DNA from: Candidatus Latescibacterota bacterium
GTDB taxonomy: Bacteria > Latescibacterota > UBA2968
NCBI GenBank assembly: GCA_965207885.1
Contig: OZ242311.1
Location: 4,832,001-4,896,000, forward strand
DNA length: 64,000 bases
Direction of reading: 5' to 3'
The notes under the pieces are model-generated. The model was not told the origin of the DNA and did no database searches. It saw only the letters and a program-made list of their open reading frames with translations. Both the position numbers and the translations under genes were made by a program. This document shows, one piece after another, positions 3,480 through 14,830 of the stretch; the stretch's first letter is position 1, and every line of letters begins with the position of its first letter.

Positions 3480-4472
3480 CTACAAAAATTTTTCACCGGC
3501 ATGATCTGTGAACGAATCGGCATCGCGGATGTATTTCATTACAGTTGAGGGATTTGTGTGTCTGGTGATTTCCATTATTTTATCTAAGCGAGCATTGTGA
3601 CAAGCCGCGCTGGTAACAAAACCAGCCCTTAATGAATGTCCTGATATTTCCTTCTCATCTAAGCCACTTAATTTCGCATAATGTTTAACTAAGCGGGGAA
3701 TATCCGAATGGTGCATTGGTTTGCCTCGCAGTGTGCCCCCACGCCTCATTGTCTGAAATACAGGACCATCAGTAATTCCCGATGCTTCCAGCCAATCTTG
3801 CAGCCTTTGTATAGGCTTTAAGTACTTGCCTCCTGGTATAGCGATCTTATGCCCTTTCCCTTCTTGATCTGTCTTTGACTTGCGAATATAGAGAAACATT
3901 TTTTTTCTACCATCTGGGGATGGTATGATTTCAATATCATCTGTTGTAAGTCCGCATATCTCTGATCGCCTAAGTGCACCAGCGAATCCAATAGCAATGA
4001 TTGCGGCGTCCCGTAGGCAGATTAATTTTTTCCCTACCTGATTTGCCGTCAGGTCACATATGTTCAGCATTTTTTTGATATGATATTCTCTTAACGCCTT
4101 GACCTGGCGGCAGGCTGAGCCTCTAAGCCGCGCAAGACCTTTCACAACAGCATTGACATTAGGATGGTTAGTAGGGGATGGGATTCCTAATTCAACATAT
4201 TTCCTATTGATTGCGCTCCGATATAAAACTACTGTACCCATAGAAAGTATTTTTCCACTTGCCGGTCTGGGACGTGTCGCCAGTTCAATCATAAAATTAG
4301 CAATGTCTTTTGGTGTGGCGGATAAAGAGCAGATGTTTTGCGAATCACAATAATCGCTAAAACAAGACCAACCTTTGTCATAGGCGATACGGGTATTGTC
4401 CGCTAAAGCGGATGAAACCACCTCGCTATAAAAGTCTATTTTGATTGCATTAGCCTGAGAAGATGATGTCAT
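3480..4472 (-). CDS. Tyrosine site-specific recombinase/integrase (Cre-like)
   Basis: N-terminal core-binding region (LADNTRIAY...W..F); catalytic motifs ALRRSE, KSKTDQ, SGHSLRAG, TRH...VMKY; AGGAG RBS. Confidence 0.93.
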   Translation of the reverse strand: MTSSSQANAIKIDFYSEVVSSALADNTRIAYDKGWSCFSDYCDSQNICSLSATPKDIANFMIELATRPRPASGKILSMGTVVLYRSAINRKYVELGIPSPTNHPNVNAVVKGLARLRGSACRQVKALREYHIKKMLNICDLTANQVGKKLICLRDAAIIAIGFAGALRRSEICGLTTDDIEIIPSPDGRKKMFLYIRKSKTDQEGKGHKIAIPGGKYLKPIQRLQDWLEASGITDGPVFQTMRRGGTLRGKPMHHSDIPRLVKHYAKLSGLDEKEISGHSLRAGFVTSAACHNARLDKIMEITRHTNPSTVMKYIRDADSFTDHAGEKFL

Positions 4473-4533
4473 TTTGAACTCCTGAGAATTGATTTGGATT
4501 GTACTAAATTGTTGAAACTATAAATATAAATAG

Positions 4534-5310
4534 TCAGAGATAAAAAATATTATCAAGGAGTTATCTATTAACTACGGAATTAAGACTCGTTACAATGAGG
4601 CTTTTATCATTGATAATCAGACTAAGGAGAGATTAATTATCCAAGATTCTAAATCTGCTGAAATCATTAGGCCAGTATTGCGAGGAAGGGATATTAGCCG
4701 TTACAAGGCTAACTGGGCGGGATTGTGGTTGATTGACACTCATAACGGATACGGTGATATTTCCGCTGTTGATATTGACGACTACCCGGCCATCAAAAGC
4801 CATCTGGACATATTCTACCCAAAACTGGAAAAACGCTACGATAAAGGCAGAACACCTTACAATCTCCGTAATTGCGCTTACCATGCAGAGTTCAAAAAAG
4901 AAAAATTGGTGTGGATTGAACTGGTCGAAAATGGGCGCTTTGCCTATGACCACAGCGGGATATACTGTGAAGCCACATCCTTTATAATGACCGGCGATTG
5001 CATCAAATATCTCTGCGTCTTGCTGAATGCAAAGTTAATACGCTGGTTTCTTCAGAAGACAGCACCAACATCGGGTATGGGAACTTTACGCTGGAAAAAA
5101 GCTTATGTTGAAACAATTCCCGTCCCCCAATTATCAGCGAGAGAGCAGTACCTGTTTATTGAACTAATGGAGCATATCCTGACGGCTAAAGCGACTGATC
5201 TGAATGCCGATATATCAGCTACTGAATCCGAGATTGACCTGCGGGTTTACGAATTGTATGGACTGACGGCGACAGAGATCTCCGCAGTGGAAGATCAGCC
5301 TTTACTATAG
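4534..5310 (+). other. Silent (no ATG start) alternative C-terminal target-recognition cassette of the RM gene, TaqI-C-like, in inverted orientation
   Basis: Open frame begins after the TAG at 4531-4533. It translates KELSINYGIKTRYNEAFIIDNQTKE...KSAEIIRPVLRGRDI...CAYH..F.KEKL.W...GRFAYD...IKYLC.LLN..LI.WF...SGMG..RW, colinear with the last ~260 aa of the 5376-9116 gene. Confidence 0.88.
4603..4628. repeat. Inverted repeat, left arm (TTTATCATTGATAATCAGACTAAGGA)
   Basis: 25/26 match to the reverse complement of 6085-6110, including a perfect 17-bp block; contains the dyad TTATCA-N-TGATAA. Confidence 0.8.
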
Positions 5311-11543: not shown

Positions 11544-14500
11544 GGTGTGTGCATCCCCGAATCGAGGATGATTAACCACGTTACCAACTCAAAATCACCA
11601 GTAGAATTTTCAGATTTTACTGGCAATCTAAAATCGCTCTGACCGTGAATGCCCATTCCCTGGATCTGTGTTGAGGTGTTTGCCCTGTTGATGTGCTTCA
11701 TAACCTCGTCCAGCAATTGATCGTAGCGGACCATGTCCTTGCCGTTTTGGGTTTCGTGGTCAAACTGGTCACAGAGCTTTTGCAGTGGCTCGGTTTTGCC
11801 AATGGCTGCGGATTCAAATAATTCCAGCACTCGTCTGGCATTGGCACAACCGTAGCGAATGTCGCCGCTATCGCGGATATACACGGCGTAATAAGGATGA
11901 ATTGGGCTGGCTACTTTTTCGCGTTTATCCTCGCTGGCGTTGCGCTGGCGCAGGAAGAATATCACGCCCGGCCTTGTGGAATCGCTCCCACCGTCGGTCA
12001 GAGCATAGGCTCCATAGGGCGTTGCCTCCAGTTCTGCTTTGTTTTGTTCTAAATATCGCAACAATTGGGCAAAGAAGTAATCGAGGGTGAAATCGCTCAG
12101 GACGACGCCGTCGGATAACTCGTCAAAGTCCAGCACTTCTTCACGCAATTTTTTTAATTGTTCGTCGCGGAAGTTGAGTTCCATTTGCGCTTCTTCAAAG
12201 GCGTATTCGTTCAACGGGTCATCGTCACCGCTGGCCGCTGCGTCTGCCAGAGCCATGCGCGCTTCTACGCGGCTTTGCAGGCGTAAATAGGCGTCCATGT
12301 CTTTGGTGGGCCAGTAGTTGATCATTTGCACGGATCGGTTGCGGCTGCCAATGCGGTCAATGCGTCCAAAGCGCTGGATGATGCGTACGGGATTCCAGTG
12401 GATGTCGTAGTTGAGCACGGTGTCGCAGTCTTGCAAATTCTGCCCCTCCGAGATACAGTCGGTGGCAATGAGCAGATCAATTTCTCCGTCCACGCCGTTG
12501 CCGCGTTGGCGTGCGCGTGGGGCAAAGTTGGTCAAGATGGCGTTGAAGTTATTATCGCCAAAAGAGGTGTGTGTCGCGTCACCGGATACCATTGCCATGT
12601 TCAATCTGTGTTCTTTTGCCAATTCTGCCAGGTTTTCGTAAAGATATTCCGCTGTATCCTTAAAGGTGGTGAATACCAGCATCTTGCGGTTGATCTTGCT
12701 GTCCTGATCAGTCGTCGGATTTTGCGCCTTACCCTGAATGTGTTCCCGAATGGTTTTGAGCTTGTCATCTCGTGGCGGTGTGATGGCACGGACCTTTTCC
12801 CAGGCTGCTGTGAGGGTTTGCTTGTCTTTTAGTAAGTCTTTTTTCCAGCGAGGCAAATCCAATTCGCGCAGGTGGTAGGGAGTGCGCGCCCGATTGATCA
12901 GAAACTCCTCGTCATCTTCATCTTCGTCGGGCAGTATATCGGCCTGTGCATCCTGTATCGTGGGTTTCTGCTCGTAGCGATGTATCTTGTCTAATAGATC
13001 GTCGATTTTACCGATGGTACGCCAGAGTGTTTCCGTGAGCGCATGCGCGGAACTCTCCAGACGTTTGAGAAAGTTCGTCTGCATCATGCCAATGAGAAAG
13101 CGCTCGCGGTCTGCCTGATTGAACCGCAGTTGTTTTTTTTCATCCGCCAACCGTTTCTTTGCCTCTGCGCTGGTGACATAGCTGGATGGCTGGTAGATGG
13201 ATAGGGCGAATTGACCTATCTGATTGGCCAAATCCCGATAGGACAGTTCGCCTCTTATGTCGGTTTGTGGATAGACATTATCCGGTGCCTGTTGTGTGGG
13301 AAATCTGCCGATTCTGTCTATTTCCCGGGCGTAAAACGTCTTGATCTGTCGCCGCGAGCGGGCAATGGAGACGCCGCCCAGTAAATGAAAGAAATCAGGA
13401 CCCAGCTTATCTAACAATTCAGCCTTATCTCTTTTTGTAGTTGAATTATTCTCCCAGGCCTTAAACTCCTTTTGCGCCCGCCCCAGCAAGGTCCCGATAT
13501 GCCCAATGCCCAGGCTGTTGCGGAATACATCCTCGCGCTTTTCGGTCATTAAATAGATTTGATTGCGCAGGTCAATAAGCGAGGTGTTGACCGGTGTCGC
13601 CGAAAGCATCAGTACTTTGGTTTGGGTGCCTTCCTTGATCACCTCCTCCAACAGCCGCGAGTAGCGGCTATGGCGAATATTGCCGTCGTCGTCTCTGCGA
13701 GGTTTTGATTCATTGCGGAAGTTATGGGATTCATCGATAACCACCAGATCGAAATTGCGCCAGTTGAAATTTGCCAGATCGATAGTGCCTACTTCTCCGC
13801 TATTGCGGGACAAATCGGTGTGCGATAGCAGCGTGTAACCGAAGCGGTCATCGTCGAAAGGATTGCTGGTATGGGAGTTATACGCCGGATACAGTGCCCA
13901 ATTTTCGCGCAGCTTTTTCGGGCATAAGACCAGCACCCGCTCGTTTCGCAATTCAAAAAATTTGATCGCAGCTAATGCCGTGTAGGTTTTTCCCAGCCCT
14001 ACGCTGTCGGCTAAGATACAGCCATTGTGCCGCAACAGGCGGCCGATAACGCTTTTGGCTCCGTCTTTCTGGAAATCGTATAGCTTGTTCCAAATTTGGG
14101 TATCGTAGAGGTGTGTATCCTCCAGTTGGCTTTCGCCCCTTTGTCTATCTTCTATGTCTTCGCGGAACAATTCGTAGAGTGTTTTGTAATAGATAAACTC
14201 TGGCGCGTGGTCTTTACCGATTCGCGCCAGTGCGCGCAGTACATCCCTTTTCACATTTCTGGTCAAATCCTCGTCTGTCCACAGTTCGTCAAACCAGGCG
14301 CTGAGTTCGTCGCGTATTTCAGTGTCGCCAGTCGCCAGGTTGATTTCCACATTTGCACTCGTTCCACAGCCCAAACCGCTCCGGGTAAAGTTGGAACTGC
14401 CGACCACTGCTGCGCCGCCGTTTTCAGATTCGGTGAGATACATTTTGCCGTGCAAAAAATTGGATTTGCTAACAGATCGAATTTTGACCCTTCTGCTGCG

Positions 14501-14830
14501 TACCCATTTGGCGCATTGCTGTGCGAGATATTTTTGCTGTAATGCGTGATTGGGCGAGAGTTGACCTTCGATTAACTCAAAAGATTTTTCCGTTTTCTCG
14601 CTGGGATCTACTTCGCCAACCGATGCTGGGTCGCCAAAGAGAAAGCGCACATCCTTTACATTCTGCAATTCGTTTTGCAGGGCATCGTACCCGTAAATGG
14701 TAAAATACGCCGATACCAGCCGGAATATGTCCGCGGTGGGCAGATGTGCGCGTAGATAATCGACGACCGTATCGAGGCGATTGTCTAAGATATGTTTGTC
14801 TTTTTGCGTTTTGGTATCCTGCTGTGTCAT
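11540..14830 (-). CDS. SNF2-like superfamily 2 helicase with N-terminal phospholipase-D-like nuclease domain
   Basis: PLD-like LHGKMYLTE...[42 protein letters not shown]. Confidence 0.92.

Follow-up and report, generated by a model that had tools for sequence, protein, structure and literature searches.

A PLD-SNF2 helicase–methylase locus with a rearranging target recognition domain and a conserved sigma factor fusion in a Candidatus Latescibacterota bacterium

Introduction

Inversions have been confirmed in a group of invertible, Cj0031-like Type II genes. Two of these loci, given in Table 3 of the main text that describes them as CP083813.1 and CP044495.1, adjoin a gene for a PLD-SNF helicase; genes with an Eco57I domain are enriched among the inversion targets, and several variants occur per locus (Milman, Yelin, Kishony 2023, PMC9881135). 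Here we describe a locus of comparable arrangement in a 64,000-nucleotide stretch of DNA (the window) from a Candidatus Latescibacterota bacterium (GCA_965207885.1, contig OZ242311.1, forward strand, positions 4,832,001-4,896,000), in which a PLD-SNF2 helicase, a fusion of a sigma factor to a copy of the methylase's N-terminal domain (N-domain), an adenine methylase with a target recognition domain (TRD), an inverted spare TRD and a recombinase lie side by side. As in the loci of that main text, the helicase adjoins a methylase of Eco57I type, the 3' part of which is exchanged with an inverted copy truncated at its 5' end, and inversion variants coexist, as judged here from short-read contigs that break at one pair of inverted repeats (IR2) or are inverted at another (IR3). 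Unlike those loci as presented there, the TRD is subdivided by three repeat pairs, and the host belongs to an uncultured lineage. The likeness to CP083813.1 and Cj0031 is one of domain content and arrangement. The sigma fusion was not found in the sections of PMC9881135 consulted, and its supplements could list such loci.

The helicase is also found in 117 plasmid records. In both plasmid loci that were opened (NC_012109.1 and NZ_CP015595.1), the helicase is 37-38% identical to that of the window over 97-98% of its length, matches the same PADLOC model (C3a139), and is directly followed by a DUF4391 gene and then by a Mod-type methylase. We take these PLD-SNF2/DUF4391/Mod/Res operons to be the “restriction-like” system of Gao et al. 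2020. Here too a domain that may be DUF4391-like follows the helicase, but on the plasmids DUF4391 is a stand-alone gene, the methylase is Type III Mod-like, and a Res-like helicase is present in one of the two loci, whereas here the domain is fused to a gamma-class methylase with its TRD and, in a second copy, to a sigma factor. No Type III Mod or Res gene is among the locus genes scanned.

Other described systems share single features with the locus. The nearest precedent for a sigma factor in a defence operon is MzaA of mzaABCDE (NF041931, PADLOC PDLC02203), a sigma-70 with an extra N-terminal part; the fusion matches it in the sigma part only (213 bits against a cut-off of 800) and differs from it at the N-terminus. 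The matches listed for 10 locus proteins include no further Mza model. AIPR genes, a family that we take to be MzaE, are cargo in some related loci. Like the Type IIG/IIL enzymes DrdV, BpuSI, Eco57I and Cj0031, the methylase joins a gamma-class N6-methyladenine (m6A) methylase and a TaqI_C-type TRD in one chain; unlike them, it has no conserved catalytic Asp in its N-domain, and its locus also encodes a PLD nuclease-helicase as a protein of its own. With DISARM class I and BREX the locus has the families of SNF2 helicase, PLD domain and adenine methylase in common, but it is neither of these: it holds no DrmA/DrmB and no PglZ/BrxC, and the scores for DrmD (138 bits, cut-off 610) and PglX (70 bits, cut-off 500) are far too low. 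The preliminary description of the locus had already noted that drmA/drmB (DUF1998) and BREX core genes are absent, and this holds, as the single DUF1998 gene lies at C1:2.53 Mb, about 2.3 Mb away, and PglZ at C1:4.61 Mb, about 220 kb away. Defence systems are assigned here from hidden Markov model scans of the locus proteins.

The same description had proposed seven genes as one new system. This is not supported: higBA, the fusion and the inversion module are separable, and a core pair with an invertible TRD has already been described. The locus consists of three layers, namely a core pair, a TRD shufflon and a sigma fusion; the first two are of known kinds. Below, the window's own genome is G000, while genomes of relatives, mapped loci and proteins carry G-, L- and P-numbers, respectively.

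The helicase, the methylase and their N-domain

The open reading frames (ORFs) have the positions and orientations first claimed for them, only the spare TRD being on the opposite strand. The core pair and the fusion are as follows.

11540..14830, minus strand: PLD(HKD)-SNF2 nuclease-helicase, 1096 aa (Pfam PLDc_2, SNF2, Helicase_C)
9239..10879, minus strand: N-domain-sigma fusion, 546 aa (probably DUF4391-like N-domain at about 1-250, then sigma-70 regions 1.2-4.2)
5376..9116, minus strand: methylase, 1246 codons, with N-domain, N6-adenine methyltransferase and TaqI_C-type TRD (Eco57I, N6_Mtase, TaqI_C)
8454..8456, minus strand: in-frame TAG, methylase codon 221, at the end of the N-domain; a strain-specific lesion

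The PLD-SNF2 helicase and the adenine methylase with its TRD are a widespread pair. The helicase matches PADLOC model C3a139 “HKD+Snf2” (E 4e-110), and its motifs are all intact (HxK at 127, Walker A at 275, DESH at 366, motif VI at 819). G000 itself carries a second adjacent pair at C1:5240334-5247034 (L001:6275-15222), whose helicase and methylase are 46% and 54% identical, respectively, to those of the window; it has no fusion and no spare TRD, and a TIR-TPR gene comes next. Two further, more distant pairs lie at about 6.05 and 6.09 Mb. For Synechocystis Slr6050, a candidate relative, a GAAGGC m6A motif has been put forward tentatively (PMC6105098).

The methylase matches PADLOC REase_MTase_IIG (E 3e-144), with m6A methylase and TRD in one chain, which bears out part of its earlier designation as Type IIG; the label itself is doubtful because the N-domain lacks a conserved PD-(D/E)XK site. 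In the intact, 1237-aa methylase of G014, the best-matching stretches of the IIG model begin after the N-domain. This domain has a confident predicted fold, with a predicted local distance difference test score (pLDDT) of 91. Its best fold match is the DrdV endonuclease domain (Z 4.8, root-mean-square deviation 4.5 over 124 residues), which is within the chance range, and the BpuSI nuclease domain follows at Z 3.6. VIA-align against 48,161 chains gave nothing at Z of at least 5, Foldseek nothing at E of at most 0.001, and the ESM Atlas no usable match. In the 124 aligned rows no catalytic Asp is conserved, and the E-x-K position holds E in 60% and K in 42%. The DUF4391 model stays below its cut-off in three fusion proteins chosen for that label (best E 1.8e-5, 25 bits against 29.9). 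An N-domain search of plasmids found no match, and one of viral contigs only two marginal matches (E 3e-4). The N-domain may be DUF4391-like and is probably not a nuclease; it would serve as an adaptor that docks on the helicase. In one 686-aa protein (P0178), the N-domain is joined neither to a methylase nor to a sigma factor but to a TPR-like tail.

A structure prediction bears on such docking. The complex of helicase residues 560-1096 with the fusion N-domain scores 0.57 against 0.00 for the best control, in a range (at most 0.60) where the benchmark holds 18 of 157 solved complexes and also both of the 2 of 215 mismatched pairs that passed. The runs agree in at least 62% of contacts, and the partner has a pLDDT of at least 69. 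Most likely the sigma factor docks on the helicase as the methylase does, a reading to which this prediction lends slight weight.

The sigma fusion is a conserved family

The 250-aa N-domain of the fusion is 53% identical to the N-terminus of the methylase and occupies the place of sigma region 1.1. What follows is a group-2-type sigma factor in which regions 1.2, 2, 3 and 4 each score above the Pfam cut-off, in agreement with the alignment; the sigma-70 is complete. Regions 2.3-2.4 and 4.2 are conserved, and the promoter-reading motifs are like those of the host's free sigmas. A model of the full fusion was poor (pLDDT 61) and was not used for fold searches. Our searches of open-licence papers, including the passages of PMC12839542 consulted, yielded no description of an N-domain-sigma fusion.

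The fusion is not an accident: 54 of its 62 near homologues have the sigma domain, and among 132 genomes of the class 16, from three families, carry it. Of 51 mapped loci 18 contain it, with the helicase upstream in all 18 and the methylase present in 17, the other ending at a contig edge. It precedes the methylase in 17 of the 18, and in 12 it follows directly after the helicase, which is the methylase's slot in loci that have no fusion. The gene neighbourhoods of helicase homologues therefore go only part of the way with the preliminary description, since the association of helicase, methylase and fusion recurs whereas higB or higA is found in only 7 loci. The complete order helicase-fusion-methylase-inverted spare-recombinase is seen in 5 of the 51, so the genes do co-occur elsewhere. 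One homologue (P0046) is labelled Gemmatimonadota by NCBI.

Purifying selection acts on both halves of the fusion, with ratios of nonsynonymous to synonymous substitution rates (dN/dS) that lie at 0.17-0.37 in the N-domain and at 0.14-0.37 in the sigma part (28 pairs, 8 genes, dS up to about 2). In a quick tree of subsampled rows, a single clade (support 94) unites 27 of 29 sigma-linked N-domains, and a sigma factor is carried by 5 of 148 further representatives, among the best 150 of 724. More distant fusions suggest that the N-domain has been joined to unrelated sigmas repeatedly, which is likely a case of convergence. The sigma of P0146 is rejected from the main clade by the approximately unbiased (AU) test (p = 0.004, for a group named post hoc and on a long branch), while for the P0059/P0061/P0082 group the test is not significant (p = 0.27). 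P0161 has the N-domain joined to a sigma region 1.1 (E 8e-6). P0192 (MCY4173972.1) is partial and comes from a metagenome-assembled genome labelled cyanobacterial by NCBI; its sigma is presumably cyanobacterial too. P0146, P0192, P0082 and P0161 are single sequences judged without neighbouring genes. A genome scan with P0146 as query gave ordinary sigma genes only, and there are no sigma-bearing relatives among the 4 matches of P0146.

G000 has eight free group-1/2 sigma genes besides the fusion, one of them 2.4 kb before the window start, and the related genomes hold 6-14 matches each to the fusion query.

The TRD shufflon

The inversion module is made up of the following elements.

6144..6151, minus strand: IR1, expressed-gene arm, 8 nt
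6085..6101, minus strand: IR2, expressed-gene arm, 17 nt
5796..5808, minus strand: IR3, expressed-gene arm, 13 nt
about 4549..5310, plus strand: silent spare TRD (TaqI_C) cassette, from Pfam and sequence comparison
4562..4569, plus strand: IR1, spare cassette arm, at the cassette's 5' edge
4612..4628, plus strand: IR2, spare cassette arm; contigs of runs X3 and X4 break at exactly these bases
4872..4884, plus strand: IR3, spare cassette arm; inversion junction 4885/5794 in run X7
3480..4472, minus strand: tyrosine recombinase, 330 aa, presumed invertase (PF00589; catalytic motifs present)

Three nested pairs of inverted repeats divide the TRD into exchangeable blocks a, b and c. The spare cassette, which lacks its own 5' gene part and lies tail-to-tail with the methylase, is 52% identical to the expressed TRD. 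The recombinase is present in 8 of 53 genomes of the order and has an inverted spare TRD beside it in 7 of these, the eighth being at a contig end. GC content is 40-43% across window positions 3000-6000 (recombinase, spare cassette, TRD), compared with about 51% genome-wide.

Relatives are found in different inversion states. The expressed block b of the window shares 93% identity with the spare of G014 and 92% with that of G051, but 47% with the expressed genes of both, while block c is unswapped with respect to both and 92-93% identical in place. Between G019 and G036, blocks b and c are swapped and block a is not. The repeat cores follow the genome in which they lie: exact 8-mers of IR1 match in 7 of 9 comparisons within genomes and in 4 of 72 between genomes, and those of IR2 in 9 of 9 and 12 of 72, over an all-window 8-mer background of 6% within and 8% between. 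These comparisons cover 9 loci and omit G004, where an insertion-sequence transposase pair (L023:11464-13511) interrupts the spare TRD cassette. In G051 (L022:6111-7720), block a is of the same allele type in the expressed and spare copies, which suggests gene conversion besides inversion.

Junctions in short-read contigs, taken from 4 of 23 listed runs, agree with these comparisons. The contigs of X3 and X4 (3300-4628, 4612-6101 and 6085-6501) end exactly at both IR2 arms, and both IR2 orientations are probably present because the 17-nt repeat alone would not break a 31-mer assembly. In X7, from another study, a single contig runs from 3900 to 4885 on the plus strand and then from 5794 to 5094 on the minus strand, as results from inversion at IR3; X5 has the same IR3 state as the window. 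A further joint between opposite strands (4987/6303) was not counted, its likely source being a paralogous methylase in another part of the genome. In three other assemblies (L009, L119 and L124) the contig stops no more than 25-38 codons into the TRD, on IR2 or immediately past it, as mixed orientations would lead one to expect. Several runs sharing words with this stretch, outside the four compared, are labelled sponge metagenome.

The TRD shufflon is thus real as a DNA rearrangement, and a spare TRD that is only a dead remnant is ruled out by the reciprocal swaps and the contig junctions. The recombinase is presumably the invertase, and inversion would change specificity. The switchable specificity proposed at the outset has more support than the sequence of the locus alone could give, in that the inversion states are seen in relatives and in contig junctions; an altered specificity would follow from them.

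Shufflon and fusion occur independently of each other. Of the mapped loci, 10 of 51 have an inverted spare with a recombinase, and 5 of these 10 also have the fusion. Among the other fusion loci, no inverted TRD is seen in 9, and in 4 the contig runs out before the TRD or on reaching it. Because they overlap in only 5 of their 18 and 10 loci, the fusion and the inversion module are separable accessories. The locus is a core with independent accessories, and nothing ties the inversion state to sigma, which leaves the idea that inversion drives a sigma-dependent output with no evidence behind it.

A stop codon in the methylase gene

The methylase ORF of the window is interrupted once, by the TAG at codon 221, in a column that is Trp in 113 of 124 aligned relatives, whose frames are open over about 1200-1260 codons. 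It is not an assembly error, because contigs of two runs (X3 and X4) span it with 0 differences; these runs are one sample, hold all sampled words of this stretch, and may be its source. Since TAG ends 426 of the 1984 genome ORFs of at least 400 aa, and relatives have Trp, we read it as a lesion. Recoding was set aside on the same grounds, pyrrolysine genes not having been searched for. As read from these sequences, full-length methylase is lost in this strain, and inversion heterogeneity persists. With the TAG where the N-domain ends and a TTG start 16 codons further on, a translational restart could yield a methylase uncoupled from the nuclease.

Cargo and surroundings

The remaining genes are cargo of the island.

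11265..11543, minus strand: HigB toxin, accessory cargo (PF05015, E 2e-16)
10937..11278, minus strand: HigA antitoxin, accessory cargo (TIGR02607, above cut-off)
2102..3310, minus strand: PDC-S54 candidate defence gene, 402 aa, island cargo (PADLOC, E 1e-158)

The higB ATG overlaps the stop codon of the helicase. Even so, with higB or higA in 7 of 51 loci only, higBA was rejected as a core part and is replaceable cargo; in other loci the slots between the core genes hold AIPR, or Schlafen/AlbA_2 and ParA. Four loci have ORFs of 1270-1470 aa beside the methylase (L028:12867-16682, L016:10479-14468, L012:13777-17739 and L017:11277-15680), with no Pfam match apart from one weak NACHT. The PDC-S54 gene, which the span first described does not take in, has a weak HSDR_N match at its C-terminus and occupies the same position after the recombinase in G014 and G051. 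Next to it, a 148-aa ORF (1547-1993, minus strand) is without a match in Pfam, NCBIfam or PADLOC; it is also found downstream of several such islands (L006, L013, L022, L024 and L028). A tRNA scan of the 64-kb window found none, and a promoter and terminator scan gave nothing above chance (21 sigma-70-like sites, 15.6 ± 4.1 expected).

A model of the system and its alternatives

We consider it moderately probable that the locus encodes a restriction-like two-subunit system with two separable add-ons, and that, through its sigma, the state of the helicase controls transcription. The methylase-TRD subunit, judging from its domains, would mark host sites with m6A. At unmarked sites it would recruit the PLD-SNF2 subunit through its N-terminal, DUF4391-like adaptor, and the recruited subunit would then move along the DNA and cut. 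Inversion between the three nested repeat pairs would swap blocks a, b and c with the silent cassette, giving up to eight TRDs. The duplicated adaptor, fused in place of region 1.1 to a presumably working sigma-70, would plug into the methylase's socket on the helicase, as the presence of the same adaptor copy on the sigma suggests. The last step is a guess: the helicase may hold or deliver the sigma and, by engaging, control the transcription of defence genes. A bolder extension is possible, but we hold it to be doubtful. The helicase would be a motor with a socket for exchangeable subunits, and sigma-70 would have been put on the same adaptor independently in several lineages, aiming the nuclease at promoters or serving as a transcriptional alarm, while the shufflon changes what counts as foreign.

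Several observations weigh against the two-subunit model. The best fold match of the N-domain, although within the chance range, is an endonuclease domain, so that a nuclease role for it is still conceivable, and its hhalign alignment with the plasmid DUF4391 proteins is collinear but weak (probability 4-5%, E 0.008-0.011). A complex prediction of the grade obtained here is more often wrong than right unless the complex is likely beforehand. Most helicase-methylase loci are without the fusion, which is dispensable; 14 of its 18 copies are intact, 3 broken and 1 unclear, and its dN/dS is about twice that of the helicase (0.09-0.13, from the 9 of 21 pairs that are unsaturated). As to the shufflon, the 8-mers of IR3 discriminate poorly (8 of 9 matches within genomes, 36 of 72 between), and active switching gives the same contigs as a mix of fixed, closely related strains. 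Finally, the model is built on sequence, contig and prediction data, from which methylation, cleavage, binding and transcription are functions that we infer.

Three other explanations of the fusion were weighed. In one, which is unlikely, the sigma would be a second targeting subunit that brings the nuclease-helicase to promoters or to the holoenzyme, where newly transcribed foreign DNA would come under attack or lose its transcription complexes, whatever the motif of the methylase. The architecture does parallel that of the methylase, with the same adaptor joined to a DNA-recognition module, the fusion takes the methylase's place next to the helicase in 12 of 18 loci, and the capture of unrelated sigmas recurs, with regions 2.3-2.4 and 4.2 conserved. 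However, since the promoter-reading motifs are the same as in the host's free sigmas, such targeting would hit self promoters too, and in the window the helicase and fusion are intact with the methylase broken and no sign of lethality. Less probable again is a decoy that controls establishment, the adaptor competing with the methylase for the helicase and delaying restriction after horizontal entry while the sigma drives the operon promoter. A decoy would not need a fused sigma, and no operon-specific promoter stood out in the scan (21 sites, 15.6 ± 4.1 expected), yet in 17 of 18 loci the fusion gene comes before the methylase gene, the adaptor is an old copy with a clade to itself (support 94, with 27 of 29 sigma-linked rows), and the islands are patchy, which suggests frequent transfer.

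The fusion might also be a passenger, an ordinary spare sigma that acquired the 5' end of a methylase gene by rearrangement and was kept for its sigma function only. Chance fusions are plausible because free sigma genes are many (8 further group-1/2 genes in the genome) and some lie within 4-7 kb of several islands, and these islands often decay. We nevertheless regard this as the most improbable explanation, as purifying selection acts alike on N-domain and sigma, across distances at which dS saturates, the fusion lies beside the helicase in 18 of 18 loci from three families, and it arose more than once (AU p = 0.004, one case). The two-subunit model with a helicase-controlled sigma is the one that we favour.

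Concluding remarks

The shufflon adds an uncultured, sponge-associated lineage to the hosts of invertible Type II systems. With two natural alleles per TRD block, all of its combinations amount to a map of how blocks read bases in a TaqI_C-type domain. The unexplained part of the locus is the fusion, a conserved sigma factor joined to a copy of the methylase's front domain, which hints at a link between restriction and transcription. If unrelated sigmas have indeed been captured repeatedly by the same domain, this link would be an easily reached and selected design, and if the fusion works as proposed, a restriction complex would be connected to RNA polymerase directly, by a sigma factor of its own.

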